DNA of 62,920 nucleotides, counting the filler, from Hausera hauseri (taxonomy: Eukaryota): NCBI GenBank assembly GCA_046269625.1. It is 9 parts of 9 records of this genome, joined end to end, with 100 filler letters (N's around TTAATTAATTAA, not from the genome) between each part and the next. Parts side by side here need not be neighbours in the genome. Positions count along the whole stretch, not along the records: positions 17,088 to 26,801 come from JBJURY010304388.1; 8 more parts are not named here. One strand, 5' to 3'. Below are positions 541 to 41,808 of the stretch, one piece after another; positions within the stretch are counted from its first letter, which is position 1, and every line of letters starts with the position of its first letter. The position numbers were made by a program, and so were the translations under genes. A model generated the notes under the pieces. It had not been told where the DNA came from and did not search any database. It saw only the letters and a list, made by a program, of their open reading frames with translations.

Positions 541-700
541 ATGGGTGTGTATCAAAAATGTATGTGTATGTATGTATATAAAAAGTCATGTGTGAATGTG
601 TGTATCAGAAAAATAATGTGTGAATGTGTGTATGCGTGTGTGTATCAGGAAAATAGTGTGTGTGGTTTTATTTTTTTGATGTATGCGCACACCAACATTT
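541..700. repeat. Degenerate (TG)n/(TGTA)n microsatellite
   Basis: Runs of gtgtgt/atgtgt/gtatgt; explains the C/V/M/Y-rich start of ORF 541..972. Confidence 0.65.
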
Positions 701-1048: not shown

Positions 1049-1995
1049 CTACACCAATTTATATGGTCCTAAGTACTGTGGCTGGAAACCGCACGGTGTT
1101 TGGTTTTTTAGCCATACAAACTTTGCCGAGTATAAGTCTTCGGGTATGTAAGATTTGTCATTATGTAAAAGCCTGCAAAACAAATCTTTGTTGATTGTGA
1201 CGAAGTGATCCTGTGCTGCTTGTATCCTCTCGTCTATGAAAGTCTCTTCAAGAGCCGTTAGTTCAAACAGTGACCATACAGGAGTTCTGAATAAAGTTTC
1301 CGTTGATGAGCATCCTGTGGAAGTAGACGTAGTGTTCCGCCAGCCAAGCAGAACGAACAGAAGAAGAGTAGTCCAATTGGTGTTTGACTGTGCTAGAATT
1401 CTGAGTGATGTTTTCAAAGTTTGGTGGAAACATTCGAGAAGGCCGTTTGATTGGGATGTTAGGGTGTTGTATGAATGTAGCTTATTCTCAATCGGTTGAC
1501 TAGGGATTTAAACCGATTTGACTCGAATTGCGGACCTTGGTTTAAGATGATATGACGAGAAGACCCGAATCTACTCACCCACGTACAAATGAAAGTATCG
1601 GCTATAGTGTCAGTGTTTGTGCTCCTCAGTGGCATTGCTTCGGGCCATAGTGAGGAACGGTCCATCATGGTCAGAATAAATTGGTGGCCGTTGTCTATTG
1701 GAAGAGGACCGACGATATCTATATGTACTGTTTCAAAACGTGATGTGCAGGGGAAGTAATATAATGGTGGTTTTAAATGTTTTATAGTTTTATATTTTTG
1801 ACAAGCCGCTCACTCTTTAACCCATGCTTGCACATAGGAGCGCATCGACGGCCAAACTACTTGACGTTGAAGTAAACGAAAAGTTGCTTTGGCACCAGGA
1901 TGATGTAACGAATGTACACTATCAAATGCTTGTTTGTGTAAAGATGGGGCAAGAATTATTTTAGAATGCCCTGGTTTGAAAGTATCTAAGGCCAC
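1049..1995 (-). pseudogene. Integrase fragments of A1
   Basis: HHCC zinc region, DRSSLWPEAMPL, QGPQFES and C-terminal GPY motif spread over three ORF pieces. Confidence 0.88.
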
Positions 1996-2248
1996 GCCGT
2001 CAACGATGTGGTGCGACTTGAACGATTTGAGAATATCTTGAGATGGCTTATTTTCTTGGAGTTATGTCTGAGTAAAGATTGGCGAAAAATTGATTGAACC
2101 GACTGATCTAGATGGGATATCGGCAACTAGATTGTCAACACCGTCAATGTGTTTGATATCAAAGTTAAATGTGGACAAATATAAAATTTGTCGTTCCTGT
2201 CCAGTTGAAGGGTGTTTCATTGCCATTATATTTATCAACGGTTTGTGA

Positions 2249-3817
2249 TCAGTCTATACCAAAATGACGAGCTGTAAGTAAGTGAGAAAAATGTCTTAAA
2301 GCAAGAACTATTGCCAGCAGTTCCCGATCGAAAGTTGAATATCTAGTTTCTGGCGGTGTTAATTTTCGGGAAAAGAATTCCAGAGGTTGATTTTCGCCTT
2401 TATACAACTGGTGTAGTACGGCACCTACTGCGATGTTTGATGCATCTGTGGTTAAAATTAGCTCAGCGTCAGGCTTAGGAAATGCTAGTATTTCAACAGT
2501 CTTTAGTCCTTTGCGTAGCCTATCAAACTTATTAACCAGTTGTGGCGTCCACATGATTTTCTGAGGTTTTTTTCCTTCGCTTAAGTGTGCAATATGTGCC
2601 TTGAGTTCCGAATAATATGGAATATATTTGTGAACGAAATGCAAGGTACCAAGAAAACTGCGCATTTCTGTGGTTGTCTTAGGCAGTTGGACATTTTTAA
2701 GGGTCTCAACTCGATCAGACTGATGTGAATGGCTGTTTGATGAGATAATATGTCCCAGAAAATTAATGCGTTTTTGGAAGAAGTCACATTTTGCAAAATT
2801 GATCTGTAGATTGAACTGATTGAGTCGTTTGAAGATAGATCGTAGGTGTTCCTCGTGTTGTTTAACAGAAGAAGAAGCAACCAAGATATCATCAATATAT
2901 GGATGCACGAAAGTAAAGTCTGAAAGAATTGAATCGACGTGTCGCTGAAAATTTTGCGCAGCATTCCGTAGACCGAAAGGCATATACAAGTACTCATAAA
3001 GACCAAAATATGTGGTAACCGCACTTTTCTCGATGTCTTCCGGTGCGACAGGAATCTGGCGGTATGCTTTGGCTAAATCGATTGTTAAATAAACTGTGGT
3101 AGAATTAAGCCGATGTAATATATTTTTGATCAAGGATAGTGGATACGCATTCACTATGGTCAAAGTATTAAGCTGACGATAATCGCCGCATGGTCGGAAA
3201 GATCCATCTTTCTTTTGGACAACGTGGAGGGGCGAAGGCCATGGGGATTTAGATCTACGAACAATACCTGATTTTTCGAGTTCGAAAAATTCCACCTCTA
3301 CCGCCTGCCTGCGACTAAGTGACAATGGAAGAACCTTTTGTCGAATTGGTCTTTGGTAGCGTGTAATTATATGATAGTAAATGTCATTTACAGGAATGAA
3401 ATTCAGATCTTTTTGAAGTATACGAGGACAAGAAGTATTGATGAATTGTTGAAAGCTTACGGGTAGTTGCTGGAATATTGTGAGTGACGATGAACCACGG
3501 CTGTTGGCAGTACTTGGTGTATGTTGATTGATTGTTGGTGAGGAATCGAGTGGAGTTTGAAGTGGAATGGTCGAGTCCGGGACCTTATTTGCGTAAGTGT
3601 AGTTGTTCAATGATTTTACTGAAGATACCAGATCCTGAATGTCGACATTGAGCTGTGACTGACTATCGACGTTGTCCTTTGGGAGCTTACTATGTAAAAC
3701 GTGATAGTTAAGAGAATTAGTATGAGGTATAGATCGTTTAAAAATTGATTGCCTACTTACAGTTGTCTGTGTTGTCGTCGGGGTGCTGTCTATTCCTGTG
3801 CTAGTCTTCAGGTGCAT
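2249..3817 (-). pseudogene. Reverse transcriptase / RNase H of A1
   Basis: SPWPSPLHVVQKKDGSFRPCGDYRQLN, MPFGLRNAAQ, YIDDIL, LTTDASN, YSTFDRELLA. Confidence 0.93.
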
Positions 3818-3878
3818 TTGATTTCAGGTATCGTTGGTTACAATCGACTAGCAAGTTACAGTGTGACAGGAAATTGGA

Positions 3879-5631
3879 TCAAAGTATTGCCGTCTGGACG
3901 TTAGCGACTGTAAACGTCCAATGAAATGATGAGGGAAATTTTGGCAGTGAAAGATAATTTGAAAGTTCCGGCAATATGAAGAGGTTGATCGGAGCAGTAT
4001 ATAAAGGTTTTGTTTTAAGTAGAGAAATCTGAACCGGAAAAGAAAGTGGTAGTAATGAGATCTCTGCGCCGATATCGATGAAAAAGTCTATGGATTGAAT
4101 GTTAGAATTGGAGATAGCAGCTTTTAGTGTAAAGACCGCAAAAGAAGTGTGTCGGTAAGATGAATTAGGTAAGTTTCCTTTGCCAGAATCTGCCGAGAAT
4201 ACTGGCGGTTTTTGGATTGGTGAGTTAGGACGGTTACTGTTAAAGAAACTGGACCGTCTATCAGTGGTGTAGTTATTGTTAGATTTATAGTTACAGTCTG
4301 AAATACAATTCCGAGCATTAGATTCAAATTTTTTATGATAAATGCAAACTATGTTATCTGAGTGTAGATTCGGCGAATAATATCTACACCCTAAACAGCA
4401 TTTATTTGCTTTGTTATTAAATTTGTTATGGTAATAACATATAAATGACCGCGTTGGTGACGGTGTTCGATTTCTGGAAAGAGAACGCGTTCGATGAGGC
4501 GAGGAAGTGTTTCCGTCGATGTAAGGAAAGGTCATTCAGATTATCATTGATGGTGTTGATTGTATGTTGTAGTGCCGCATTTTCGGCGCGTAATTGGTTC
4601 AATTGGTGCTCACTAGATGTATGTCGTTGATTGTCATTGGTCGTAATAGCGGCTGATATGATGGGTTGTGATTGGATATTTAAGACTTCGTGTGCTTTAT
4701 AGGCCAATTCAGCTAACTTATCTAAGGCTTTAGAATCTTCAACAACGGTGAGTAAAGCCCTAATTTGAATGGGTAATGCGTTCAGGAAATATCGTCGAAG
4801 TAAATCTGGGTTGTGTTCCTTAGTCACTCCTAGAGTACGTCAGTGAGCCAACGAGGTACGTAGGAAATCACTAGGTTTTTGTGCCCCCATTTCATTTTAA
4901 TTAAAGAAGCGTTGTATTATCGAATCAATTGATGGTTCTGTCAGTTTTTATACAGCATTGAACAATTGCGTATAAGGGTCAGGGTGTTGAAAGATGTGCA
5001 ATAAGTTATGGATTGAGGCATTTATGGAGTTTGGTAGAAGGTAGAGTAGATTATGGGCTTTGGATAACGAGCCTGTAATACCGCTGGATTGTAACCAGAG
5101 TTGATGAAAGTGGAGCCAAGTTTTGATAGAATTTTCATTGTCTATAAAGTAATCAGAGCAATGTGGGGGTGTAATTGTAAAATTTTTGTGAAAAGAGTTA
5201 GTAGCGGTTGAAGTTGGTGGATGGTTTGATTTGGGATAGTAGAGATTGGATTTGGGTTTTATGGTCACCTTATCTGTGATGTCAATGGTTGGTGAAAAAA
5301 TCATACCGCCGCGGATTTTAGGGTGAATGTGAATACAGAAAAAGCGTTGTGAGGACATGATGTGTGGGCGGTCAGTTAGAATGAAACCATTGTGAGTCAG
5401 ATAGAAATCGCTGAAGGCGGTGATATTATGGATGATGGAATATAATTGTAATGTCTCGGTACGTTGTGTGACGTGTACGGTCTGTATTAAGGTGTTATTG
5501 ACAAAAAGGTAGAAGGAAAACGGTGGTGATACATGGAAAATCGGGTAATGTGGTATCTCGACGTGGTCATTCGAAGTCAAGAGGGTTGCTGTTGCTTTTG
5601 AAGAATCTGACCGATAATTGTGGCTTGACAT
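3879..5631 (-). pseudogene. Ubl-Gag-protease region of A1
   Basis: Ubl ending KIRGG, capsid-like FLNALPIQIRALL, two Cx2Hx9Cx3C knuckles, DIGAEISLLP protease motif. Confidence 0.8.
5305..5520 (-). other. Ubiquitin-like domain N-terminal to Gag (A1)
   Basis: FSFYLFVNNTLIQTVHV...DFYLTHNGFIL...IHIHPKIRGG follows the beta-grasp pattern and di-glycine end of ubiquitin. Confidence 0.7.
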
Positions 5632-6139
5632 TTCATCTGAAACGGATCCAGAAATATTTCTTTGGAATCCTTTCGTTATTCTGCCGCCCTAGATAAATAA
5701 CTGCAATATTTTGTGAATCCAATAACAAGCACAACCATATCCCCATCGTAAAATCTGCACGAAGGAGCCTGCATCAAAAAGAATTTCTTTGTATATCAGG
5801 AACCAATTGTATGATTTAGTTCCTCTGTAAAACGCAACGGAAATGTACAGTTGTTTGGTTCGAGGGGCAAAGGTCTACCACCGAAAAAGATTAAAGTATT
5901 GTTTTCTATTTTACTAAAATTTCCGCACAGAGAGTTAAGATGAAAATATGATCGATCTGTGGACTCCTTATGGTTAATGATTCTATTGCGCATATAACTG
6001 ATACTTACTGAAGAAAGTCGACAATGGCCAGAAGAGAACGGATTTTTTCCATAGTCAGAAACTCTAATCAGATACTCGCTGTCATTAGAAGAATAAATCG
6101 GGCCGACTTTGCAATAGTGTGCCTTACTTCCACCTCGTC

Positions 6140-6239
6140 NNNNNNNNNNNNNNNNNNNNNNNNNNNNNNNNNNNNNNNNNNNNTTAATTAATTAANNNNN
6201 NNNNNNNNNNNNNNNNNNNNNNNNNNNNNNNNNNNNNNN
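6140..6239. other. Assembly spacer
   Basis: N44-TTAATTAATTAA-N44. Confidence 0.97.
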
Positions 6240-7720: not shown

Positions 7721-9707
7721 CTTAGTAGTAAGGTAAAATCTAAAATCAAACGAATATTCAATGATGGAATCGCCTAATTTGATGCAAATAGCACCACCTT
7801 GTTTAAATGTCTGTTTCAACAACAGTGGTTCCAAAAGAGGATCCAGTTCTTCACCGACATTTTCTAACAACACTGGTGTACCAAACTGAATACAGTTCTC
7901 CAACGTTCTCACAAAGTCGGAATCTGTTAACTTGATCACCTGAAGATTATTTCTCTTTTCCATATTTTTGATCCATTTATTTGCCTGACCCTGTGGATCA
8001 ATTAGTAGTGGCCATCGACGAGCATTGCTGATTACCATTAGGCTCAATTATTTGATGCAAATATTACCTAATAATAATGCTATTCTCCACCGAAAAATCA
8101 TCAGTTGGAAGACCAAATATATTCCATGCTCTGATTTCAACTGGGTCTCCAAGCGTTAAAACCAGCGAAAATTTATCGGAACAAGGAATATTTTTTTCTC
8201 GAATATTTTTCAACCATTTTTTCGTTTGATCAACTCTAAAAAATGATGTGAATGCACCCAGATATGCTACCACATCACTAGAAAGTAGAATTTCACCAAT
8301 TAAGTTCGTAAATTTAACACCCAAATCTTTTGCAGCTTGAATCCAACGATCTTTTTCACCGCCAAGACCACCAATCAATTGTTCGGCTCGATCCAATTTT
8401 TTCGAGCACCGACCAACATTGTTTTCTAAATCTATTTTTTTCCGTTTATTATTCTCCAATTCCTCTGTGAGTGTTTTTAATTTTTCTTGTACTGCTTTAA
8501 GGGCAGCTCTCTTCTTATTCAATGAATCCATGGCAGCATTATATTCGCCCAAAGCCTTTTCCAGAGCAACCTTTTTTGGAGCTACAACCTTAGCCACTTT
8601 GTCATATTTGTCGATGGCATAAACCCATTTACAAAGACCCTCGGTAGCCGTAGATGCCACTGCAATTCTTTCCGGCTTAAACTCCTCATTCACAATATAT
8701 TTCTCACGTATGACTTTGATATAAGCAGCAGGGATGTTATCTTTGTCATATGTTTTTAAACTTTCTAAGAACTTAATGTCTCCTAGAATTCGTTTTGATG
8801 GTCCCCAAAAGTCTTCTATTTTCTTTCCAGAACCACTTGGATCATTAACTCTGTCGGGTTTAACTCCTCTCAAGACGCATACAGCTTCCATAACCAATCG
8901 AACACCCTTAGGGGTTGATATCATGGTTCTTACAATGGCAATATCAGCAGGTGTCAAGGTTTCCAAGGCTTTAATAGCTGACTCTAAAATTGGTAAGGCC
9001 TCAGCAAGATCACTGTCACATTCATTTTTGATTGCTTCGGCAGCTCTGGCCTGTTCCCCGGCAACTGCTTCATCAGCTTTAACAACTTTTTCTTGCTTCG
9101 CTGCTTCCGTACTTTGTTGCTCTACAATAATCATAGCCTCGTCAACTTCTTTACTGGCTTGCACTAGCTTTGGTTGATAATCTGTGAGTTCTTTTTGCAT
9201 CACAGATATGCCTGAAGCTGCATTCTGTAATTTTTTCAAACCGATTTCATACCGTCTTTTCTGTTTAAGAACTTCTGTTCTCTTTTTTTTCAACAAATTC
9301 ATGAACATATAGATTAGTTCCAAGTAAGACGTTGGTGTCACATAATTATGTCGACTGAGTTCCAACAGAAACTTTTGAGACAGATCTCGAGTAGAAGTGT
9401 GGAACAATTTGCAAAAATCAATGCAACTCATTTTAATTTCACTTTCGAGTTCGATTTCTTCTAAAAATCGAGTAGCCACAGCAGTTAATGCATCTTCTGG
9501 CCAGCTCTGAAACCAATCAATCGTACAGCAGTTGACCAAAGACGGAAATTTCCTCAACCGATTTCTAAATGCATCACCAATAGGACTCATTGCCAATACA
9601 ACGTGCAATTGATCTCGAACTCTCTGAATGAAGAAGTTAAACAGTGCAACCGGAGAACCATCTGTTTGGCGGCTTTTATCTCGCTGTCTATCAATTTGAC
9701 GCATTTC
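7721..9707 (-). CDS. DNAH7: Axonemal dynein heavy chain fragment (DNAH7-like; end of AAA4, stalk/microtubule-binding domain, start of AAA5)
   Basis: MRQIDRQRDK..LHVVLAMSPIGDAFRNRLRKFPSLVNCCTIDWF; RRWPLLIDPQGQANKWIKNME; ends at FRFYLTTK followed by a GT donor. Confidence 0.88.
8028..8067 (-). other. 40-nt GT-AG intron in the dynein fragment
   Basis: AG|gtaatat...taatcag|C; removal restores ENSIIISNARRWP. Confidence 0.85.
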
Positions 9708-11171
9708 GTTATATTCATTGTTATATTTAACCAATGATGCCTCTACTGGAGCTAAATTTTCCTTAATATTAGATACTTTTTCAGAAAGTTTAGCGATCAT
9801 CATTTCCTTTCTCCAAATAAAGAATTTACATTTAAACGGAATATCGCAGCAATTAATAACATAGCGAATTAAAAGTACCTGTTTTAGATAATTCATCGAG
9901 ATTAAATTCCAAATGTTATTCTCAAATTCTTGATTAGTAATATTAGAATTATCAATCACTTCATCATAACTTAAACTGTTTTCTGCATCAGCCCAATTAC
10001 CGGCGGAGTTCCAAGTTCCATTTAAATTTAAAATCGGTTTATCATCAACCAACATTTTCCACGAAGTATTAGTGAAAAACATTAAAGTTTGAGTGAAAGA
10101 TAATTTTTCCATTTTGTAAATATCTTTCGTAAGTACTATATTGCAATGACAAATGTTTGAACCAAATGTCATATTACATGATATTTTACCAACGGTCTCT
10201 GGTTTATTGAAAAATGGATTCAATTTGATGTAATCACAATCATAGTCAAATCTATCATCAAATTGTATTTTAAATTGTATGACCAAACTAACTTCATCAT
10301 TTGTAAATTGTTTTTCAATCTTCGATGGCACTTTGGATATCTTTGAAATTAAACTATCTGACATATCATTCCGAATATTGCCCGATTCAGAATGAAAGAA
10401 ATTGATTTGATCCATATCCATTTTCGTATTTTTCGTCACATTTCCTTTCACTATTATAAATACACACACAATAACTGAACGTGTGCCGGCATCGTCAAAA
10501 TTTTTATACAGATCATTACTCTTAGATAAATAGAGTAAGTTCGGCATATCAATAATCGGATTTATTAAATTTGTAACAATTTCTTTCGCCGTAAATATTT
10601 TTACACTTCTTTTCATCAAAATTAGATCATATCTATAATTTGTTAATTTATCATTTGAACAATATGTGTTCTTTGAAGGGTTATTTGATGACTTTGATGA
10701 AGGATAAATGTAACTGTTGTTAAAAGCTTTATAAATTTTTATCTCGTTTTCATCGATACATTTAAGTTCATTTAATAATTTTTGATCAGTCCGGTAATGT
10801 ATAATTTCGTCTCCGCCGATATCATTTATTATCATAATTATCTGTAATATTTCAACATTATTTTGAACATAGTTACAGTCTTTCCAAACGAAACAGGCGT
10901 GATTGAGACGATAATCGTTAAATCTTCGCATCATCACCTTCCTTTTACAAGTGAACTCTTCCTTTTTGATGGTTTCTCCTTTTCTTATCTTTAAAAGTGT
11001 CCCACCTGAGATGCCATTTGATGTTCGTCTCAGAATAACGTATCTATTCATTTTCGACTCATTTTCCTTTTTATTCGTATCTTTAATTTTCACTTTCGAC
11101 ATCTTTTGACATTGTTGGATAACTTTACATGTATAAGATATATAACTCATCGATTTAACACGGAATCTCAT
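9708..11171 (-). CDS. Unknown ~490-aa N/K/I-rich domain fused in frame to the dynein fragment
   Basis: ~1.46 kb stop-free in AT-rich DNA, no dynein motifs, no AG acceptor at the junction. Confidence 0.6.
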
Positions 11172-13072: not shown

Positions 13073-13477
13073 TCATTCATCATCCCCCATTTTTCTTACG
13101 TTAGAGATTAAGGATACCGACACCATTTTGCCATATGCATTGTAAATGATCACTTTGTCATTTGTCGCATTGCACAGTGCACAAACTGAGCTGTCACGGT
13201 TGATAAAACTGTTTATGCACTCCTTATGTTTTTGGAAACAATTGTATATCTGCACTGAATATCCTGTTTTGCATGTTTCATTTAAATTGTCTATTTCACA
13301 TTTCCTCACAATGGTGCCATATTCATCGTAAACTGCAACAATGCTATCTTCCTTTCGACATAATTGGCATGACTGTTTTGTCCAATTGGTAAAGCAACTG
13401 AGGCAAAATCGATGGATGCGGCTGTTCATTCGGACAGTTGTTGATGTGGTTTCTTCGAAACAAATTGTACAGAACAT
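13073..13477 (-). CDS. Small intronless protein with two degenerate RING-like Cys/His units
   Basis: CTIC..HRFCLSC..W..CQLCR, then C..C..HKECI..CALC; each unit followed by a V(A/I)(V/I)Y-x-x-YG segment. Confidence 0.7.
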   Translation of the reverse strand: MFCTICFEETTSTTVRMNSRIHRFCLSCFTNWTKQSCQLCRKEDSIVAVYDEYGTIVRKCEIDNLNETCKTGYSVQIYNCFQKHKECINSFINRDSSVCALCNATNDKVIIYNAYGKMVSVSLISNVRKMGDDE

Positions 13478-13689
13478 TGTAAAATTTTCACAAAATGTAA
13501 ATATGTACTATGTTTTATATTTTTTGAGAACACAAGAAATAGAAATCAAGACACACATGTGCGTGAAGTCCGTCTTACCAATGTTTACCTGTTTGCTTGC
13601 GTGTGTAAAATATAAGTAATATTTAGCTAATATGAGTAATATGCATCTAATACACGGGGAGTATGAATGTGATATAGAAATTATAAAAC

Positions 13690-14200
13690 ACACAACATAT
13701 ATCTGAGCTATACATTTTCTCAGGTTACTTGCATTTTACATACATGCACATACACACCATATATCTTAATCATTCATTTTCCAAGTTACTCACATTTTAC
13801 ATGCACAGACATGCACCTACACACAGACACATCATATATATCTTAATCATTCATTTCTCAAGTTAATCACATTTTTACTCACATACCATATATCTTAATC
13901 ATTCATTTCTCAAATTACTTACATTTTGCAAGCACAGACATACACACACAGCATATATCAGAGCTATTAATTTTCTCAGGTTAGTTGCATTTTACATTCA
14001 TGCACACATCATATATGCTAATCATTCATTTCTCAAGATAATCACATTTTTACTCACACAAAAACACACACACACACCATATATCTTAGTCATTTATTTC
14101 TTAAGTTACTCGCATTCTACCTCACTCAAACATGAACACACGACATATATTTGAGCCATTCCTAGATTACTTACATGCGCAAACACATATCTGAGCTATA
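13690..14200. repeat. Diverged minisatellite (~55-65 bp unit)
   Basis: Repeated catatatcttaatcattcatttctcaagttactcacattttac + (ac)n. Confidence 0.85.
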
Positions 14201-17087: not shown

Positions 17088-17845
17088 GCTAATCGCGAAG
17101 TATTCTGATACAAGACCGGAAGGTCTTGTATATAACGTTTTCCTTCGACATTAATCGGTACATCTCTTTTCACACATTAGTAGGTTAATAGGACTTCTCC
17201 CATGACTTCCGAAGATTCTTTCTCTCATTGGAATTGTCGGGAATGCTAATTCAGGATGCATTATCAAGATTGAAGCCTAAAAGTAGTGCTATTACTGCAA
17301 TGAAGAAAACTCAACTCGAAGAGTTAGTATACAGATAACGTGTCTTAACGTTGGACAAAGCAATTAAAATTTCGACAGAGTAGAAAAAGGATAGAGTCAT
17401 ACAGATTTTACTAAGAAAGACGTAATACCAAAATGACGCCAGCTTAAGAAACACTTGCAGAGACATGGACATAAATATTGTGTTTCGGGTGATAAGGATC
17501 ATGAATATATTTTATTTTACGAACGCAAAAGACGAAAATTGATACTAATCCCAAAAGGTTTACGAGCGGAAGTGTTGATGGCAAAACATGACTCATACTC
17601 AGCTTGACACATGCCTTGGAAGAAGACGCTAAAAATAATACTGAATAAATATTATTGGCACGGTATTTACATTGATGTGAAAATTGCGTAAGTACCTGTG
17701 AACTGTGCGCAACCAAACAGAAAAAGGTAAAAAAGATTACGTAGCTGGACTGAAACCAATAAACATACAAGATAGACCCATACAAGCTATATCAATGGAT
17801 ATTGTGTGACCACTGCCTATAACCCACAGAAATAACAAATATATT

Positions 17846-18601
17846 TTGACCAGTATTGATCGACTAACTCATTTCGTGGAGTTAATAGCACTAATTGACC
17901 TTGCAAAAGCCATATTAAGAAAAGTTTTCTGCAAGTATGGACCTCTCGATCAGTCCTTGACCGATCGAGGAAGAAACTTTACAAGTGAATTATTTAATAA
18001 GATTTCTAAAATCTTTGATATCGAACGGTTAACCACTACTGCATATCACTCGCAGTGTAACGGAATGGTTGAACGGATGAATACAACAGTTCTGAGAGTC
18101 TTGTCGACCGTAGTCGCGAAGGACCAAAAAGACTTGGACGAATTCTTAGAAGGAACACAATTTGAGATCAATTCTACCCCGCATCCCGCCACAGGATTTA
18201 CACCATTTTTTATGATGTATGGACGCGAAGCGATATTACCTACGGACTTAGGAATGATTCCGTATTACGCAAATCCAGAAGATTTAGAGCCAAACTTCGC
18301 AGAAGTCTTACAGACGAGATTACAAAATTGCTGGGATATAGCAAAAATGCTAACTCTCAAATATCAAGAGCAGTTTAAAAAACAATATGATAAGAAGGCC
18401 AAATCTCACGATTTAGAAAAAGGAAACTGGATCAATGTGCATTATCCAGTCGCACAGAAAGGTATATCATTAAAACTTACTCGTACCGGACGCGGGCCTT
18501 ACGAAATTATTCGAACCACACCAAACACAGTTTACATTAATAAAAATGGCAAAGAGGTAGTATCCATACAGAGAATCGTTAAGACAGAAATAAGACCATA
18601 A
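17846..18601 (+). pseudogene. Integrase core + GPY of B1
   Basis: IDRLTHF, TDRGRNFTS, TTAYHSQCNGMVERMN, GRGPY. Confidence 0.92.
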
Positions 18602-19985
18602 AAACGTTATAATTTGCGATCCAGCCAAAATCAAGACAAAAGAAAGACAAGGACATCCTCTGTAATCAATAGACCAATATCTTACGTACAGATAATCTTA
18701 GCATTATCGTTAATCGCTTATTATGTTCCCAAGACCCAAGCGCAATGGTGGGACGATAGTGAATCCAGTTTAACGGATATATATATGGAATTAGTAAAAA
18801 TGAAAGGGAAACTAAAATGAGAAAGGAACAGAAACATTTGGAAGGACAAAAAGATGTTGAAAACATAAAAACAATAAAAGCATATGACGCAGATTGGAAG
18901 AAACATGGCATTTGGTTCCAAATCAACAAGGCTATTAGAAAGTATATGAAAATTCGTATAAAGTGCACTGATCAAATTAGTAAAAGGATAAAGGATTGCG
19001 AGTTCGGATATGGAATCTACAGAAAATGTTGAGAACTGAACTTCAAACAAATATATAGACGTGTAGTACTCATGTATTATTACACCTACAAAGTCATTCG
19101 AGCAAACATACGACCATTAGTGGAAATAACTATGTCAAAACAAGCCTTAGCTGATAGCATAAAGTTATCTGACATAGTCCAAAGTACCGATCCTCAAATT
19201 AAGTTGTTAGACAAAAATATAGTTGAAGTTTCCAAGAATTTAAAAGTGCATGCATCCAGAAAAACCTAGAATAAGTTTATCTGAAGCCTACCAGATCTCG
19301 GTTCGATTTATACCATCTAAAAAAACAAATCCGCCGGCAGGATATTGCGCTGTCAGCCGACGGAACCCAGAACCGTACTGTAAAATACCCGAAGGGCCCA
19401 AATACGGAATACAATTCGACCTATATAAGGTCAGACCAAATCAGCCTAGCATATACCTAAGAGGATATCGTCTAGAAAGACAAAATTGGAAGATTCCAAT
19501 CAGTACGACGACAACGACTAGTACCATTACTAAAATCATCACAACGAGTACAAGACACGGAAGACAACCGGGGAGTATTCCTATTAAAAACAAGATATTC
19601 TTTGTCGAGGAAAGATTAAACTACGACATAGAAATATATTTTCGAACCTTATATGATAAACAAAAGGTAATACTTAAAAGGAATACACAACAGACAGAAT
19701 GTCATTCACTAAAATCTCAGACAGAATACATAATACAAATGAATTCAGCAGACAATTTCCTTACGCACGTTAATAGAAAATATTTACCCAGATTCGCAGA
19801 AAAATTGAGACGTAGAAGTTACAAGTACCGCATATATGACAACACAGAAACCAATTGAATTAACAGCGCTACCCATTTTATTAATTATCGGAGTGTCAGC
19901 GTTCGTCCTAATAATATTAATAGCGTCATTTTATGTAACTGCCAAAAATTGTAAAAAACAGCCAAAAATAAAGACGGAGAGATAA
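18602..19985 (+). pseudogene. Env-like type I membrane protein (frameshifted)
   Basis: Signal-like ISYVQIILALSLIAYYVPKTQA|QWW, Cys-containing ectodomain, Thr run, TM LPILLIIGVSAFVLIILIASFYV + basic tail; homolog in B2. Confidence 0.72.
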
Positions 19986-20015
19986 GCGTGGTATACCGAG
20001 TGCTTTATATGATAA

Positions 20016-20045
20016 AATAACCTGACAACTACAGATCGGGTTATT
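20016..20045 (+). promoter_or_regulatory. Conserved stem-loop between env-like ORF and accessory ORF
   Basis: AATAACCTGA-caactacaga-TCGGGTTATT; identical stem at 27795..27824 on minus strand. Confidence 0.65.
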
Positions 20046-20132
20046 CTATTATCAGACAGTGAAGATATTTCGTTTTGAAATACGAATCTGTCTAAGGAAT
20101 AACTTAAATTATTCTTATTTCAGATTAGTATT

Positions 20133-22384
20133 ATGACGAATCAAAAGGAAGGCCACGATCAGATCGACGTCGATGAATTTTTAAAGAGGGACGCAACAAT
20201 TATAACCCCAAATTCAAAAGCCATTTACCAACAAATCCACCTGGAATTACAGAATAAGAAATCGATTGAATATAATAAAGTGGATGAAATACCCAACAGT
20301 CTAAAAGGGATTATTGAAGAAAATCGAGTGCTGCGGTTATACGCAATGCGGAATAATGAAGACTCCCGAGCTTACAATTTAAGTAGCCTATTGACATTCG
20401 AACTAGAACATCACATTGACGTGTATATACATTTAGCAGAAGAAGTTTACTATAGACTGGCTGAAGAAAACTGGGATTCAAACAAAGGACGGCAATATAA
20501 GTTTAGTACTTTTAAGTTGCGTAGAGAGGTTATCCGAAAAAGAAGTGGAATTGAGAATAGCCGCCCTACCCGTAAAATTAATGATAGAAATCACCTGTGA
20601 GGAAATTCCAACTATACCCTTGCCTCCCTTGATATACCATCAATACCCGACGGAAGATCAAATAGACCAACATTTAGGGACGTATAAACTGGTACAAGAC
20701 GGACGGAACGGCGGTATAATTGCAAAAAACTACGGAGAAGGAGACGACGGAATTTCCATTCCCATTGAGGTCTCGATTAGAGACATGAACGTAGTAGAGG
20801 CTTACTGTAGCCTAATCATACCTCGGAAGAGAGTAAGTGAGACGTTTGCGGAAATAACGGGAATCAAAGAAAAGGATTTAATAGATGGAAAAGATGTAAA
20901 AATTGTAGAAATGGCGCTAAATCACTGCTTGTATTGATGTATGATTGCGGGATTTCAAACCCAGGAACAAATTAACAAACTGAAGATAAATTCTAAAATA
21001 TAGCATGAATACGAGAATTTTGGGCTTAACCTAAGATTAAAGAAAAGATGGATAATGTAAACCGACCAATCCCTATGACCATAGAAACACAATTTAAAGC
21101 GATGATAGAAATCATGAATGCAGCCCAATATAGAATTAATCGGCAGTTGTCTCCTGCCAAAAGAACCCAATATTTGCGTGATATTTACGCTATGATCAAA
21201 TGGGATCATGTATGGTCAGCATTAAGTCCCAAAAACAACCTGCAACGCATTACGAACCCACAAGAATTGAATTCTCGTCATCGCAAGCAATTTCACCCAT
21301 ATTCGCCAATACGAATTGTAGAACAAAAAAGGATAATAATATCCAAATTACAGTATCGAATGAAGAGGAGCTGATACAGCATAAATTAAGAAGAGTCACC
21401 TATGGATTCCAAACGCCAAAAGAGACCCAAAAAAGTGAAGAAAGCCGTTTAGGGACATCAACCAAAAAGCGCAAATTGAGGAACCCATCTTCCGAGAAGA
21501 AAACGAAATCAATATTCGGATTCCTAAAGAAAAAAGAAAAAGGATCATCTCAAATCAAACGAATCGAAAACATCCTACCGAAAGTATACCAAAGAAACTT
21601 ATGGAAGTGAATGTTCTTAGAAAGAGAAAAGAAGATAAGAAAATAACAGCGATAGCAAGTCTAGAAGATACGAAAGAATATCCTAGCATCCTAATAATGG
21701 CAGAATATGTAAGCCATGGGAAGATTAAAGAATCGGTATTTTATATCTACACAGTACCAGTGATAGAGATACATGAAAATGCCTATGTACGGATCGACCC
21801 AAAGCTAGGAAGATATTTAATACCGGTATTCAAGTCAAAAATAGGAACTAAGAAAATAACCGTGCCAGTCGACAACCAAACCAGAATAGAGATGAAAAAA
21901 CAATAAAAGAAAATGGGAGTCCCAGACTTAGATGCGCAACCCGTAATTGAATGGACCTTAATAGCTGTTAATGGAGACTTACGAAAAAGTTCGATAGATC
22001 CCGATCAAAAAACAACTACATGGATACCTATATAAGAATCCCAAAGGATTATTATTTCAAGAGATAACTTGGGTGACAGATTGCGATCTGGACAATGATA
22101 CCGGAAACTTTTGCCCCGTGTGCGAGGCTAACTTGTGGCAAGGCTATGTGATTTTAGCAAATAGGAATTGTAGACATCGTCATTGTCGAGACTGCTTGGA
22201 ACAATGGACATTAATTAATGGGAAAACGACATGTCCAGTATGTCGAGCAGAGGCATCTCAGTTAAAATATTTCTCACGTGGTGAAAATAATCGAGTAGTT
22301 GAGATAAAAGCACCTACTGCCTACTACTTGGAACAGAATTTCCAAACAAATACGCGAGTTAACACTGGACGATTCAAAAGATGA
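20133..22384 (+). pseudogene. Accessory ORF of family B: unknown domain, DEDDh-exonuclease-like domain, basic region, C3HC4 RING
   Basis: Six consecutive ORF pieces after a tttcag acceptor; EVSIRD..LIIP..EITGI..L..G; CPVC..CRHRHCRDC..W..CPVCR; N-terminal part conserved in B2. Confidence 0.7.
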
Positions 22385-22482
22385 TTTAAGAGAAAGGCTA
22401 AACGCATTACAACACCCAAATTATAGCGCCACCACTTCTGGTGCTTTAGGCACATCCGAGGGTGTCGCTCAGGGAGGAGAGA

Positions 22483-23227
22483 TGTTATGAAATAATATGA
22501 ATAATGTTCAACCAATTGCTGTACGTAGTAGTCAAATTTGTAACTAAATATTTCATTTAGTAGTATTGATTGGAATTTCAGTAGAAATTAGCAGTAGTCG
22601 AATCATGAAAAAAATAGACATTGACATTTAAAAATTATGAATAGTTAGAACTAATCATTAAGTGTGTCAGAAAATTAGAAAATAATTGGTTTGTGCGATA
22701 GAAAATCGACACTTACGTTGAACCAGCTTATATATAGAGCGAAGTTATACGGAAAGTCAGAAAAATTTTGTCTTCGAGTGTAGCGTCGATTTGAGAGGAA
22801 AGCCGAAACTAATCAGACAGTCTCTTATTGTGGAAACTATTCAAGGAAGTCGATATTGTAAATCAGTGAATCGAAGATAGTTATTAGACATTATCCTTAA
22901 ATTGGTGTTCGATATTATTCCTGGTAAATTTTGTGTTGAATATATATTGTTATTTTAAAATTAATTTCTCTCTATAGTTTCACATCGGCTCTTAAAGCTG
23001 ATTGGCGTCTCACTAAGTGCTAAAATATTACTTAACTTATATAGGCACCAGATTTGTTAACGTACGCACAGGACACAGCATTCGTTTACAAAACGCACGA
23101 AAAATCAACATACTAGGCACATTCGTTTAACGAGAACGTTAAACCGAATTTGCACATTAGTCGATTAAAATTTAAGAGTAACGTTATATATAAGGGGGAG
23201 TGATAAGGGCCACCCTAATATATGACA
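22483..23227 (+). repeat. 3' LTR of B1 (~745 bp)
   Basis: Follows PPT; TG..CA termini; shares blocks with 52972..53736. Confidence 0.85.
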
Positions 23228-24748
23228 CGATTATAGATATTGATAATACTAAAAGGGGGGTTGGAAGGCGGTGGACGTAAAGTGAAATTCGTTAAATTTG
23301 AGGAAATGCTATACGAATGGATCGATAAAGAACGCAAACAAAAGCATCGTGTTACTTGAAAGATAATTAAAATAAAGGCTCCCTAGATTTTTCGATTTGA
23401 GCGTGATGGTGGCGATGTTGTATTCGTGGCCAGGGAAGGATGGTTGTGGCGCTTTATGATGAGAAAAAAAACGAGCTTATGGAGGAAAACTACTGTTTGT
23501 CAAAAACCGCCTTGTAACTGTGTCCCTAAATTAGTGAATTTCGCATTGTTTGTTCGAAATTTAAGTATTTAGCGTAGTTATCCAGAAACATGATTTTTAC
23601 TTGCATAGAAACAGCGGTATGGTTAGATTGCTCAGGATTAACTACAGTGGAGTGCACGAGAAATTTTTATTAAAATCACCAGTCATGCTAAGGCGAAAAT
23701 CAGTGTCATGCTTTGTGCAAAAAGTGATGGAACAAAATCCCGACCTTTCGTTTTATAGGATAGGCAGCGTCAAATTAAACAATTGGAAAATTTTTGCTGA
23801 AGTCTCGAAATATGCTACGCTGGAAAAAGTTGGATGAACAACTACTTAGTTACTGAATTTTTGAAGAAAGTTATCGGTATACCATTATTCCACCGACGTG
23901 TTTTGGTGTGGGATAGTTTTCGTGCACATATCAGTGATGCAACTAAAGCCGAATGCAGAAAGCTAAAAATTGATTTGGCAATTATTCTGGGTGGGTGTAC
24001 ACAATATATACCTACTCCTGATTTTTTATAGAATAAGCCATTCAAAGCCAGGATCTGCGATTACTATGATGAATAAGTGGTAAATGGGTCAGAGGATTAC
24101 ACGAAAGGTGAAAACGTTAAAGTTCCATCATTTGAACTTAGATTAAAGATTCCTGGGAGTCACTCAGCAGAAATACGATCAGCGCGTCTTTCAAGCTCTG
24201 CGGAATTTCGAAAAGTGTGTATGGGAGTGAAAATGACCTGATCATATGTTTTAAAGAAGGAAAAGAATGCGAAAGCAGTCGAAAACTACTTCAAGAAAAG
24301 ATGAATATCAAAGAATATTATGAATCAGAAGAAGCTGATAATATTACTGAGATGACGGATGATACAGTGCTAGAACCCCTGGATGCTGATGAGGTTGAAT
24401 AAAAGACATCTATGGTTTTCTTTTTTTATATTATATATGTAAAATTTTTTCTTAGTTGTGAAAACTTTTCTAAATTACAAGTAGGACGTTTTGGTAAATT
24501 ACATAGGAAAGTTGTCATTATATTCTTGTAGGTATTTTGTTTTTAGCTTTTTATAAATTGCAAAATTTACCTTTAAATAGGTAACTAATTTCAAAAAGCT
24601 TCGTTAAAGGAACGCTTCCAATTCTGCTGAATCAATTTTAAAAGTATAAACGAAGTCTATCAAATAAGAGCACCCATCAAATTAAACGCACTCTTAACGA
24701 CATGTGTGAAAAAATAAACGCATTGTGCGTTTAATTGAGAGAATACTT
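23228..24748 (+). mobile_element. pogo/Tigger-like DNA transposon (CENP-B HTH + DDE), decayed, 5' end cut by LTR B1
   Basis: GGGRK..EEMLYEWI, GWLWRFM, VLVWDSFRAH, GGCTQYI..D..NKPFK; terminus gtgcgtttaattgagagaatac with subterminal taaacgca repeats. Confidence 0.85.
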
Positions 24749-24850
24749 GTTCAATCTTCACTAATTATTTCGGGAGAGGCTTCACTTAAATATTAATTAA
24801 TGGGGAGAACAAATTCGCGTATACCTTACTTAGGTGCAGTAAATGGGATT

Positions 24851-25475
24851 TGTAGAGACAGATCAGTCGAAACTTACCTACTTATTAGTAAGTAATGTGT
24901 GTGGGGCAGTGTCTTTACTTATTATTTAGTTACTAAGGTTTATTTACCTATTGATTTAGTTGAATTACTTTGGTGGTCGTCAGGTCGGGTTAACGTGGGC
25001 GACCAAAACTGCCAATTATTTATAAATTACTTGGTGATTTAACTACTTATAGGCCACAAGTAACTAAAGGAAAAATAAATATAATTGATATTCAAAATGA
25101 TAACAATAATACAAATATTGATAGTGAAAACGTAATCAAACACTTACACGAAGTCATAAATTGTCTTCAGTACGCATTCAAGATGTATTCCGTACGTATT
25201 CCCGTAAAATGTACACAATGTCTCCTTTTTATATACCTAGTATGATTGCAGACTTTGTTCACATTAATTCATAGTCTCAACGATAAAATTCATTAGGTAA
25301 CATAACAAATCACACATGCATAATAAAAATGTCAGTACATAATAAAAATGATAACTAAAAATTGTTAATGCTGTAAGATAATAGTAGATAACAGTTTGTT
25401 AAATTACAGTGCCAATTGTTACCATAAGTTACCATGATATTACAATTCACGATATACTGATGATTAAAATCTACA
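24851..25475 (-). repeat. Probable solo LTR
   Basis: TGTAGA..TCTACA inverted termini, TATATAAAAAGG on minus strand; no TSD found. Confidence 0.4.
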
Positions 25476-25921
25476 CAATATCCACATACTGTATATATTT
25501 TTCTAAGAAAAATAACGAGGTTACTTTAGATTTATTTTAATTAAAAAATGTCCCAAATTGTCTTATTCTGCTGTTGAACATACCCCGAATCTGACCGAAC
25601 CCTTACACAATCCTTACACCGAAGGGTAATAATTCTTACTTAAAAATGAACAACAAACATTTCCTTCAACAATTAAATTTATCTGAAAAAGTAAAAGTTT
25701 GATCCTACATCTGTTAGAGATGAAATTGGATTAAGATTAATAATGCAATTTAAAGATGTTAATGTTAAATTTCCTCACATTACGGAAAATGAAATATGTG
25801 AACAACTTGGAATGAGTGATAAAACTTTTAGAAGTTATATGCAAGATTTAGTAATTCCTTCTTTATATTGACAGAATACATGAAAAATATATTATGAACA
25901 TAAACACGAGTAGGAGAAATG

Positions 25922-26344
25922 AGCATTCGCCATCAGCCCCGGGGGTCTGCACATGTGAAAATCGATATTGCACATGTGCTAATCAATAATGCACCCAGAA
26001 CACTATCTATCGATAAAGTGCTTAGCAACCGTGACAAATGGAACCGTTGCTATGCACACTTGCACATTTCACAAGTCCATCGCTACATATTGCACCCGAT
26101 CGAATCGATTAGCACAAAGTGTTATTCGATAGTGCACGTTGAGGCGCATCGATCTGTACACTGCAGTCCACCTGCACATGTGCATTTGGGTGCAAATCAA
26201 TAATATCGGATTTCCGATAATTTCAATTTTGCTGATTAGGACATTGCACGGGGTGCAATATATTGCAAAAACGGTACACTGTGCGAATCGACCGAATGGT
26301 CTTCGAATAATATCGACTCGAAAGTGCAGGTAGTGGCGAATACC
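25922..26344. repeat. Foldback/MITE-like element built of TGCA/TCGA palindromic motifs
   Basis: Imperfect inverted ends gcattcgccatca / tagtggcgaatac; many tgcacatgtg and atcgat. Confidence 0.45.
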
Positions 26345-26801
26345 CATAGGCTTTTAGGTCCTAAAAGATCAAAATTCGCTATTACGTTCAGCGGGTACAG
26401 ATAGGAAACCGAGTATGGGGATCTCGAATATCGAGTCCGATATTCGAAATTCTAAAAATTTTTGCCCTAATACCAAACTTCGAAATTTTGAAAAAATTTG
26501 TTGACTTCATTCGATTCCCCATGTGCCCAAACCCCTAAATCCATTAGAATTATTTTATGAAAATGTGCTATATAGATATAAAATCAATTAATCGAAATAA
26601 GCAAAACGTGCATTTTAAGCTCAGTGAAGCATGAAATTAATGAACCTAGTAGCGCATACAGATAGGAACCCATAAATGGCGAATCGGAATATGACAACAT
26701 ATTCGAAATCGAGCATCTGACAATGGTATTGGGCTTTACGAAGACTGCATTTAAAAACAGTGAAAATACAGGTGTGCTTCCAATTAAATTGAACAATGCA
26801 T

Positions 26802-26901: not shown

Positions 26902-27712
26902 CTATCATACAGCCATAAAGACAATGGTCTAACTCTAAACGGACTTGTTGGATATCTGTCCCTCTTATGAGTTGGTCCCTTCTTAACCCAGTCATCTCTG
27001 CATATGACTCTCGGACATGCTTCCGGGGGTTTATTACTGTGGATTATATTTCAGATCCGTCTCTTTCTCTAATAGATATCTCGATGGGTATTCCATATCC
27101 ATCGTCTACTTTTCCTCAATTCCTTGCTAAGATTCTTATGTTACGTCCATCTTGAACTAATCTATATGATTGCTTATGTTCGTCCTTTTCTACTTCTGTC
27201 GGAGTCCGTTCAAATTCCGAAACCGGCAAACATAAATTGCAGTTCTCTTTATAGGTCACTTCGAACATAGGTTTAACAGGAAGGGCTGCTACTATAAATT
27301 CCAGACCATAGTTGATACTTTCTAAGCCCTGTTTATTTATTCTAAATGTACTAAACCGATAGTGATGCCCTTCATTGGAGTTCTATGGTTGGTCTTCTAC
27401 TCTGTAGTATAGTTCCCCGTCAGCTAGGTGTATGTATACTTCTTCAGTTCTTTTGGTCCGTTTTTGAATCAGTTCCTTTAGTGAGTGAGCTCTTGCTTGG
27501 TCATTTTCACGCATTGCGTATAGGTAAACGGTTCGATTTTCTTCTGTTATACGCTTCAGGTCATTTGGGATCTCGATCACCTTTGAAAATTCGATTGCAG
27601 TTTCGGCTTGGAGGGCTTCCGTTATGCGTCGGTATATGGATTTTGATTTGGGTACTGTCGCATGTTCCTTTAGGAAATTGTCGACGCTAAATCGACTAGT
27701 CATACTTACCAT
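26902..27712 (-). pseudogene. Accessory ORF of B2 (truncated by gap)
   Basis: FSVDNFLKEHAT..EENRTVYLYAMREND..EVYIHLA..LVQDGRN..IPIEISIR..YAEMTGL..LDHCLYGCMI aligns with B1 20133-20950. Confidence 0.8.
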
Positions 27713-27859
27713 TCTGAAAGAAAATACAAAATAAGGGTCAATCCTAAAACAAAGTATTGTTCTAAAAATGAACCAATTCTTTGTTTGATGGTGGAATAAC
27801 CCGATATGTAATTGTCAGGTTATTTCATCATTAATTTTATCCTGTGGTACCATTACCCT

Positions 27860-38110: not shown

Positions 38111-41100
38111 AGCCGTGAATATAACAGTTTCGTAGCATCGTATCCAAAATTGCCAAGCTGAACATTGATATATGGATCCGTTGTTTGCTTTCTAAAATGA
38201 GAGAGTCACATGTTGGAGAGATTGCTATTTCCGCTTAAAGTTGAATTTTCGCCTGTGATGAACGAGCTGTGCCTGTGACCGCGGCACCACATCACCCCCC
38301 GTGGCAAGATTAAGACTACAAAGAGAAGAATAAAGAGAGATTGTGGTAGGAAAAAGAAGAACTCATATCTCTTCGGTTTTGGTTCGTGTTAGGCGTTGGA
38401 CTCTATATATGAACTTCTCCCTGCTGTAAGTACTAAATGTCACTTGGTGTTACCTGTTAGATGTTACTGGTGCTTGTGGAGTTGTTTAAGGAGAGATGCT
38501 GTAGATTTTGTGGTGTTCTGGGAGGATGCCTCATGATAAGGTGAAAATGGAGCAGAAGCTGAAAAAAGAAAAGGATCACGTGAAGAAGACGAAACTGGAG
38601 ATAGCAGCAAATCGTGCGATGAAGGTGAAATGAGTAGTGGATGTGCAGGCGATGACGGAGAGGCAGACGGTGAGGGAGCAGTGGATGATGACGGAAACGA
38701 AGAGGGCTGAATGTGACGCGAGAGTGAATGCTGCGAAGGATTAAATTCATCAAGGAAATTAGATGATGGCTCGAGGGTGTAGAAGTTAGAGTTGGGATTT
38801 GAAACAATGCTATTATCCTGGTCATCGTCAACGAAGAAGGCTGGCTTAAGATTAGAAATGTGTACGTTTTGAGGTTTGTCATTGTGTAGAATAGTAGCGG
38901 TGTGTGAAAAAAGGTTCAGTAATTTGTAAGGTCCAACATATTGAGGCCGAAAACCAGAAGGTGACGGATCCTTCAGCCATACAAATTTGGCTGAGTATAA
39001 GTCTTCTGGGATATAAGATTTGTCTTTATTTATAAGACGGACGAAGGTATTCGAGTTGACATCAACAAAGTGGGACTGTGCCGCACGAACAACTTCATCT
39101 GACGGACTTTTATCGAGATTGGAGAGCTCAAATAGTGCACGAACTGGTGTCCCAAAGAGAGCCTCAGCAGGAGCACAGCCTGTGGTGGTGGATAGCGTGT
39201 TGCGCCAACCGAGTAGGACAAGAGGAAGAATTGAGGTCCAGTTATGATTGTTGTTTGCCATGATTTTTAAGGAAATCTTCATGGTGCGATGAAATCTCTA
39301 TTGAAGACCATTTGCTTGGGGATGGTACGGCGTCGTATAGAGATGGACTATCCGCAAGTGCTTCACAAGAGATTTGAAAAGATCAGCTTCAACATGCGGA
39401 CTCTGGTCCGTTATGATATGACGTGGTGAGCCAAAACAGCTGACTCATACCTTGATAAATGCATCTGCTACCGAGTAAGTGTTAGTTGATCGAAGCGGAA
39501 CGGCTTCAGGACAGCGGGAAACACGATCCATCATGGATAAGATATATTGGTAACCATTAGAGGACCCACAAGATCTAAATGCACGGTTTCAAAACGAGAA
39601 GTGCAAGGGAAGTGGTAGAGTGGTGGTTCGAAGTGTTTATTAACCTTGTATTGTTGACATGCTACACATCCCTTGACCCAGATCTGTACATCGGTACGTA
39701 TAGTTGGCCATATAACGTGGTGTTGCAATAGATGAAATGTGGCTTTTGAATCCGGATGATGAAGAGAATGAAAGTGATTGAAAGCTGTCTTTTGTAACAA
39801 TGGAGCAAGAATGATTTTCTTGTTGGTCGAGTTAGAAGTGTCATAAGCGATTCCATCGACGATTTCAACAGATTTAAAAGCTTGGAGAATATCAGATGAT
39901 GGCTGATTGCTTTTCACGACCTCAGGGGAGAAAATTGGCTGAAATGTAATTGAGGTAACCGGCCGCTTAAGAAAATCTGCTGCTAAATTTTCGGTACCTA
40001 AAATATATTTCATGGAAAAACTAAACGTTGATAGGTATGATATCTGTCGTTCTTGTCTGGGTGAGGGCTGTTCCAAAGTCATTATGTGATGTAGAGGCTT
40101 ACAATCGGTTTGGATGGTGAATTTGCGTGAACGAAACTAGTGCTTGAAATGCTTTACCGATAGTATTACAGCCAAGAGTTCACGATCGAATGTTGAGTAT
40201 CAGCTTTCCGGTTGCGTAAGCTTTCGGGAATAGAATTCTAATGGTTCATCGACGCCATTGCATATTTGGTGTAATATTGCACCAGTTGCTGTAGTTAGCG
40301 CATCGGTAGTTAATATTATTTCAGCGTTTGGCTTTGGAAAGGCCAAGATTTCCACAGTTTTCAGACCTTCACGAAGGCGATCAAATTGGTTTACTAGATC
40401 GGGAGTCTAATGGATTAATCGTCTTTTATTCCCAGATGAGAGGTGTGCAAAAGGTGCCATTAGTTCGGAACAGTGTGGTACGTATTTTTGTACAAAATGC
40501 AATGTCCCTAGAAAACGCCTCATATCCGTAGTAGTGGTTGGCAACGTCACATTTTTTAACTGTTGTAAGCGATCGGTCTAGGGCAAGTACCCTTCGGAAG
40601 CAATTATGTGGCCTAAGAAGTTGACGCGTTTCTAGAAAAAATTGCATTTGGCGAAATTAATTTGCAGGTTGCTTTGATGCAATCTGTGGAAGATAATTCT
40701 TAAGTGCTCATGATGTTTTTTGATGGAGCTGGAAGCGATTAATATGTCATCTATATATTGGTGAGCGAAATCAAGACCAGAAAACACAGTGTCAATGTGG
40801 CGCTGAAAGGTTTGAGATGCACTACGTAGGCCGAAAGGCATGAAGATGTATTCGCAAAGCCAAATGGTGTGATGACAGCAGTTTTTGGAATGTCATCAGG
40901 GGCAACAGGAATTTTATGGTAGGCCTTGTGTAGATCAATGGTAGAATAGGTATTGGTGTTGTTGAGGTCATGACGAATATCTTTAATGAGTGGTAGTGGA
41001 TAGGCATCAGTAATAGTTAGATTTTTTAATTGTCGATAGTCGCCACATGGCCTATAGGTATCGTCTTTCTTTACCAATACATGAAGAGGAGAAGCCCACG

Positions 41101-41800: not shown

Positions 41801-41808
41801 TTAACTAG

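Follow-up and report, generated by a model that had tools for sequence, protein, structure and literature searches.

The window analysed here is a stretch of 62,920 nucleotides from Hausera hauseri (GenBank assembly GCA_046269625.1), composed of nine contigs, each join being a 12-base linker with stops in all frames that is flanked on either side by N44 (positions 6140-6239 and seven like places). The contig at positions 17088-26801 carries B1, a decayed long terminal repeat (LTR) retrotransposon of the gypsy type with an env-like open reading frame (ORF), whereby the order of features is integrase, env-like ORF3, a hairpin, a T-rich tract with CAG, ORF4, a polypurine tract and an LTR with TG...CA ends (Table 1). 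ORF4 is the last ORF of the element and contains the subject of this work, an exonuclease-like stretch that is followed by a RING finger. A second copy, B2, is found on the next contig and keeps the first third of ORF4; as the contigs were joined by artificial linkers, B1 and B2 are adjacent in the window but are not true genomic neighbours. Features of gypsy/Ty3 elements were identified in both copies, namely the reverse transcriptase-RNase H-integrase order in B2 (Pfam RVT_1, RT_RNaseH, Integrase_H2C2 and rve) and the polypurine tract together with the TG...CA LTR in B1. The pol regions of B1 and B2 share 71% DNA identity, and the 5' halves of the elements are cut off by contig ends. The family exists in many copies, with 3343 contigs of one public run (X1) aligning to positions 18600-23300.

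ORF4 and its relatives

A HMMER search of 1.84 billion protein representatives revealed two relatives of ORF4 only, i.e., P0003 (870 amino acids, 45% identical to B2) and P0004 (333 amino acids, 41% identical), each being a single-member cluster from ENA, and word-indexed searches and contig scans yielded no relatives beyond these two. The family hence comprises four members (B1, B2, P0003 and P0004) with a mutual identity of 43-49%. P0003 is a single open frame of 870 amino acids in which an N-terminal domain, the exonuclease-like domain, a linker, a further domain and a C3HC4 RING (residues 747-790) follow each other. It matches all pieces of B1 in the same order, and its last six residues are the six residues which B1 reads across the polypurine tract. 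Being open throughout, collinear with the B1 pieces, equipped with the RING and sharing these C-terminal residues, P0003, which is known here as a protein record, very likely represents ORF4 of a related element in intact form. As P0003 carries all parts in one frame, the exonuclease-like domain and the RING belong to one protein. Among the C-terminal pieces, positions 21439-21903 are 37% identical to P0003 534-676 (E 3e-24) and the RING region of B1 is 56% identical to P0003 710-820, whereby the eight zinc ligands are present with RING spacing and both zf-C3HC4 and zf-RING_2 of Pfam score above cut-off in B1 and P0003. The N-terminal domain, which changes frame near 20526-20545 in B1 and is read in a single frame in B2, gave neither a Pfam match nor a usable match in the ESM Atlas. 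This domain (P0003 55-235) and the second further domain of ORF4 (P0003 590-735) are both conserved, the latter likewise having no Pfam match.

The exonuclease-like stretch was first proposed from the DNA alone, as a pseudo-exonuclease of the REX4/ISG20 type at 20690..21125. The peptide quoted in this original prediction is encoded at 20758-20955 of the + strand, with a stop at 20935-20937, and its conservation in B2 was confirmed (26903-27304, - strand; 48% identity over 134 amino acids, E 5e-36), the alignment of B1 and B2 being gap-free from 20545 to the end of the B2 contig. As regards the range, the stretch itself was correctly placed but its end was probably set too early. In B1, the domain is broken not only by the stop at 20935 but also by a shift of frame near 20995 and by additional stops; since the piece past the second frame change matches P0003 366-450 (38% identity, E 5e-18), the end of the domain is likely to be near 21210. 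The stop at 20935 is a peculiarity of B1, as the frame is open there in B2, P0003 and P0004, and in run X1 another base is present at this site in 39 contigs, which account for 465 of 472 depth units. B2 stops at the contig linker before the ExoII motif and hence is no witness for ExoII or ExoIII.

Fold of the exonuclease-like domain

Detectable homology of the domain to DnaQ-type exonucleases spans the core from the second strand to ExoII and results from matches which are weak singly and concordant jointly. For P0003 246-345, PDB matches were obtained with 8h18 (DnaQ, E 8e-4) and 2p1j (PolC exonuclease, E 0.003), the latter also being the sole PDB match of the B1 piece (E 0.43). Within NCBIfam, the B1 piece has five matches, which all lie in this stretch, four of them being named DnaQ/PolC/DEDD exonucleases (best named match E 0.0057) and one 'hypothetical', and five of six P0003 matches locate to the same exonuclease-like stretch; these NCBIfam matches are far under the curated cut-offs. 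The PHROG search identified the exonuclease phrog_192 (E 1.1e-4), and the only match of a plasmid tblastn search was an RNase_T protein, aligned over 105 residues. In the ESM Atlas, RNase_T was found in 21 of 30 matches, and the ten best family-bearing ones were all of that family or clan; the best score was 0.93 with 169 shared features, a range which shuffled proteins reach 4 to 10 times per 100 and which is uncalibrated for protein parts.

Comparison with seven DEDDh enzymes by hhalign gave a probability of 78.5 (E 1.7e-5, 84 columns through ExoII), and of 52.3 when the two window copies were used alone. A hidden Markov model (HMM) of the seven DEDDh exonucleases ranked the B1 stretch top among 840 six-frame pieces of the window, but at E 0.55, and detected the two intact-frame relatives at E 9e-6 and 6e-5; here, the P0003 domain reached 24.8 bits as compared to 7.4 bits for the best of 1000 shuffles. 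The values against these seven templates lean high, as the templates were reached through a P0003 match.

Several results weigh against the assignment. The Pfam exonuclease family (PF00929) was matched by none of the four members at E up to 10, P0004 had no PDB match, and neither P0004 nor B2 had an exonuclease match in NCBIfam or PHROGs. Moreover, the unrelated FixL PAS and Cdc15 ranked level with or over 2p1j in PDB profile searches, and ExoI and ExoIII were without local alignment in any profile comparison, which is why the registers of both were set by spacing. Two AlphaFold models had mean predicted local distance difference test values of 32.8 and 33.5, which is too low, and fold searches from them were uninformative. 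A chance resemblance, meaning that a hairpin-and-helix stretch of another fold scores weakly on DnaQ profiles, would be compatible with the silence of Pfam, with the rank of the unrelated PDB matches and with the fact that all matches are weak and confined to about 60-100 residues. This explanation is nevertheless considered very unlikely, as five libraries and the Atlas agree on one family and one place with an almost gap-free alignment, and none of the 1000 shuffles came near the P0003 score. Judged from these sequence comparisons, the domain very probably possesses a DnaQ fold. The DEDDh/DnaQ-like ancestry suggested earlier is hence backed by concordant matches and was also seen in P0003 and P0004. 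The REX4/ISG20 label, by contrast, found no support: every named match listed is of the DnaQ/PolC/DinG/phage type or generic RNase_T, and REX4/ISG20 proteins are absent among the PDB matches listed (the single one of B1 and the best 60 of 114 of P0003), whereby no REX4/ISG20 set was compared directly.

Loss of the catalytic residues

The canonical motifs (D-x-E of ExoI, the ExoII Asp and H-x4-D of ExoIII) are intact in all seven reference enzymes. In the ORF4 family, the ExoI strand preceding the conserved P-I-E reads h-h-A-x-N in 4/4 members, and no Asp or Glu was found on this strand in any of the four, in either register. The ExoII Asp is replaced by Met in P0003 (residue 330, gap-free profile alignment) and by Gln in B1, so that its loss was seen in both members that cover the site, B2 and P0004 ending upstream. 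With respect to ExoIII, no His with an Asp five residues on was identified in P0003 346-430 or in the matching B1 piece; the helix fitting best by spacing is P0003 395-407 (likely 21147-21190 in B1), where Leu and Cys, or in B1 Leu and Arg, occupy the places of His and Asp in an inferred register. The replaced acids that had been noted at the ExoI position (GIIAKN in B1, RILARN in B2) are thus borne out by the motifs, and the loss extends to P0004 and to P0003, which is intact with the RING in frame. As the catalytic signature of DEDDh enzymes was not found, DnaQ-derived pseudo-exonuclease is the best name for the domain.

The domain is under purifying selection. Comparison of B1 and B2 over 84 codons gave 0.31 for nonsynonymous (pN) and 0.75 for synonymous (pS) differences, and among the copies in run X1, 23 of 40 listed differences locate to third codon positions (p 0.0014), or 21 of 37 when the zone around the frame change is left out; as a reservation, the 40 listed differences are part of 105. 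It could be argued that the acids disappeared as these genomic copies decayed neutrally, while the active element had a working exonuclease, since B1 and B2 are both decayed by stops and frame changes. This is regarded as extremely improbable, as Ala and Asn are identical on the ExoI strand of all four members, including the open 870-amino-acid frame, and none of the 40 listed X1 differences hits either of these two residues or the ExoII site. Being common to members of 43-49% identity and coinciding with purifying selection, the loss of the acids is a trait of the family rather than a consequence of decay.

A different objection is that the domain may be an atypical but active nuclease, in which metal ligands have moved or other chemistry is used and which would trim the RNA or complementary DNA (cDNA) ends of the element. 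The invariant residues D240, E263, E273 and D305, and also E382 and D414, which P0003 and B1 have in common, leave room for an active site that has shifted, which counts against a dead domain. Likewise, in B1 a Glu immediately precedes the ExoII site, and the second match in the Atlas (0.91) is the arenavirus nucleoprotein, whose exonuclease resembles Maelstrom (PMC7968707). However, E263 aligns with a Glu which is invariant in the seven reference enzymes yet lies outside their catalytic motifs, all three canonical motifs are without their acids, and the Cys/His set for an ECHC zinc site of the Maelstrom type is not conserved: no Cys is kept in 4/4 members within residues 235-345, C368 and C400 of P0003 have no Cys counterpart in B1, and the only shared His residues are H315, invariant within 235-345, and H415 beyond that. 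An active nuclease is therefore held to be quite improbable, and the domain probably lacks nuclease activity, as far as can be judged from its residues.

Comparison with known systems

The LTR retrotransposons Juno and Vesta of bdelloid rotifers encode in their ORF3 an RNase D-like DEDDy exonuclease with intact catalytic residues, for which 3'-end trimming was suggested as a role, and the exonuclease ORFs of these elements are typically expressed from spliced messages (PMC5408684). B1 resembles them in that a DnaQ-like exonuclease ORF is located downstream of pol in a gypsy-type element (PMC5408684). It differs in that the rotifer ORF3 replaces env, whereas here an env-like ORF is also present, and, by description, in the DEDDh-type matches, the missing acids and the RING fusion of ORF4. 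More generally, DnaQ-like exonucleases are among the known accessory domains of LTR elements (PMC6338049). The planarian Burro elements, which are giant gypsy elements with env homology, contain ubiquitin-related accessory domains including a RING-type motif (PMC6431247), thus sharing with B1 the gypsy type, the env-like ORF and the RING; unlike in B1, the Burro domains reside within a gag-pol polyprotein of 4,900 amino acids, and an exonuclease is not named in the available part of that report (PMC6431247). ORFs for an exonuclease of the intact DEDDy type, on the one hand, and RING domains, on the other, have thus each been described before in invertebrate gypsy elements. The fusion of a dead DEDDh-type domain to a RING in an LTR element was not found in the full-text literature, the scope of which was without supplements, Repbase reports and most subscription papers.

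Outside of retroelements, PML likewise pairs a RING with a DEDDh-fold domain that has lost catalysis: its isoform 1 joins a RING-B-box-coiled coil to the pseudo-exonuclease PXL, and it is this dead domain that binds nucleic acid (PMC13659232, PMC10123124). PML, however, is a vertebrate host restriction factor with an N-terminal RING in a TRIM layout, whereas ORF4 is a retroelement gene with a C-terminal RING, and homology to PML was not seen among the matches listed, no comparison aimed at PML having been made. Maelstrom possesses a DnaQ fold without DEDD and binds RNA in transposon silencing (PMC7968707), and both Maelstrom and EXD1 have been described as dead DEDD derivatives which retained RNA binding (PMC5408684; PMC7968707). 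Maelstrom and the arenavirus nucleoprotein have the ECHC zinc site (PMC7968707) and no RING, and conserved ECHC ligands were not found in ORF4; the arenavirus nucleoprotein in addition keeps DEDDh, which the ORF4 domain does not. The best sequence matches, from the second strand to ExoII, are bacterial and phage DEDDh exonucleases of the DnaQ/PolC/DinG type (RNase_T), which are active enzymes with intact motifs, unlike the ORF4 domain.

Proposed function of ORF4

The domain is likely a non-cutting recognition module which brings the predicted RING ligase to a target. In the proposed sequence of events, the ORF4 message is probably spliced before translation, as suggested by an acceptor-like site in both copies (in B2, the equivalent T-rich/CAG arrangement ends at 27714). 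The RING, a predicted ubiquitin ligase, would recruit a ubiquitin-conjugating enzyme (E2), while specificity would come from the dead exonuclease fold, which would hold either the end of a nucleic acid or a host factor that is bound to it, and a host protein acting in silencing or restriction would then likely be turned over. This step is drawn by analogy with PML, Maelstrom and EXD1. Taken as a whole, this model, i.e., binding of nucleic-acid ends or a bound host factor, ubiquitination of a host silencing or restriction protein by the RING and hence protection of the element RNA or cDNA, is put forward tentatively, its chance of being correct being judged slightly below even.

Concerning the nature of the bound partner, five basic positions are kept in 4/4 members. 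The domain is charge-neutral (24 K/R and 24 D/E), however, which provides no argument for nucleic-acid binding and leaves protein binding as open as the RNA binding that had been proposed initially, along with a possible masking of RNA and a possible recruitment of substrates for the RING. Accordingly weighed was the idea that the dead DnaQ fold binds protein, either by mimicking a DEDD-fold factor of the host or by docking onto such a factor or a partner of it (for instance in the silencing or deadenylation machinery), which would then be handed to the RING, or acting as a decoy. Besides the neutral charge, catalytic loss alongside purifying selection would fit such a role, and the host pseudo-nucleases Maelstrom and EXD1 act in piRNA silencing (PMC5408684; PMC7968707). 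The five basic positions and the retention of nucleic-acid binding by the cited dead members speak against it, and protein binding is rated as less likely than the model given above, but as a strong rival to it. A further point counting against that model as a whole is the small family, given that its four members possibly all stem from one host lineage.

In its most far-reaching form, the proposal of a nucleic-acid-end-binding RING ligase would describe a retrotransposon-encoded, nucleic-acid-guided ubiquitin ligase of counter-defence, so that an env-bearing gypsy lineage would possess a PML-like protein in reverse; this is considered doubtful at present. Lentiviral accessory proteins borrow host ligases, and a counter-defence ligase encoded by ORF4 would, if true, be their self-contained counterpart. 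That the domain was kept under selection after having lost its canonical motifs, and was fused to a RING, suggests that the selected function can be binding together with host-protein turnover, and not cutting. With P0003, one intact natural protein is on record, which makes the proposal directly testable. With four sequences known, however, the range of the family is narrow, which reduces the importance of the proposal.

Further features of B1 and B2

Table 1. Features of B1 and of the ORF4 copy of B2, in positions of the window
Feature	Position	Strand	Basis or remark
pol 3' end of B1 (RNase H remnant and integrase core, decayed)	17088..18601	+	Pfam rve 17810-18598
env-like ORF3 of B1, broken	18602..20010	+	hydropathy scan; 39% identity to B2 over 136 amino acids
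Hairpin between ORF3 and ORF4, 9-bp stem and 10-nt loop	20017..20044	+	stem repeated in B2
T-rich tract ending CAG, likely splice acceptor	20106..20123	+	9 nt before the ORF4 ATG
ORF4 N-terminal domain, fold without assignment	20133..20712	+	47% identity to B2; aligned with P0003 and P0004
DnaQ/DEDDh-like domain without catalytic acids (probable)	20713..21210	+	broken in B1; ExoI strand 20716-20736, ExoII position 20968
Basic linker and second conserved domain of ORF4, broken	21211..22111	+	likeness to P0003
C3HC4 RING finger of ORF4	22112..22243	+	Pfam zf-RING_2 E 1.1e-7, above cut-off
Polypurine tract	22471..22482	+	sequence; overlaps final ORF4 codons
3' LTR, TG...CA	22483..23227	+	partial likeness to 53426-53736
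ORF4 of B2: N-terminal domain and first two thirds of exonuclease-like domain	26903..27721	-	three stops, cut by contig end

ORF3 (in B2 at about 29260-27830 of the - strand) resembles a membrane protein of type I with a length of about 450 amino acids. In B1, a hydrophobic N-terminal stretch was identified near 18662 (mean hydropathy 1.57) and a C-terminal transmembrane stretch at 19869-19925 (3.05), and the corresponding hydrophobic stretch of B2 locates to 27973 (2.58). As neither copy of ORF3 gave a Pfam match, the label 'env' reflects position and topology only.

The stem of the hairpin, which includes a G-U pair, is also present in B2 (27823-27796, - strand) and absent elsewhere in the window, the folding z values being -3.8 and -3.5 in the two copies with 0 of 200 shuffles being equally stable for each copy. 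It is the most conserved non-coding stretch of B1 and B2, and the read depth in run X1 is highest over it. Being located about 80 nt upstream of the acceptor-like site, the hairpin could regulate splicing, packaging or translation.

Part of the LTR (22928-23227) is 74% identical to 53426-53736 on another contig, where this sequence is followed by a primer-binding-site-like (PBS-like) site and by a gag frame that contains a CCHC knuckle.

Other elements and genes of the window

The contig part 51333-57131 holds the 5' half of a related element, whose LTR end is 74% like that of B1 and is accompanied by the PBS-like site; its long gag frame contains one CCHC knuckle and an Asn-rich stretch. A different gypsy family occupies 38111-51232 and 1-6139 on the - strand, whereby tandem pol copies at 38284-41798 and 42948-46469 are 87% alike and a third relative is found on the first contig. 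Upstream of these pol copies ankyrin-repeat frames are located (48707-50640), which may be compared with the ankyrin-bearing Burro elements. Just past the LTR of B1, at about 23230-24400 (+), decayed frames occur which we take to be like a pogo/Tigger-type transposase. A separate small ORF at 13073-13477 (-) starts with a RING-like finger (Pfam E 4e-4) and is adjoined by short tandem repeats (13688-14160). Finally, two pieces of host genes were identified, i.e., an uninterrupted dynein heavy chain frame of 1035 amino acids at 8064-11171 (-) and a frame for a UAA-family nucleotide-sugar transporter at 60509-61237 (+).
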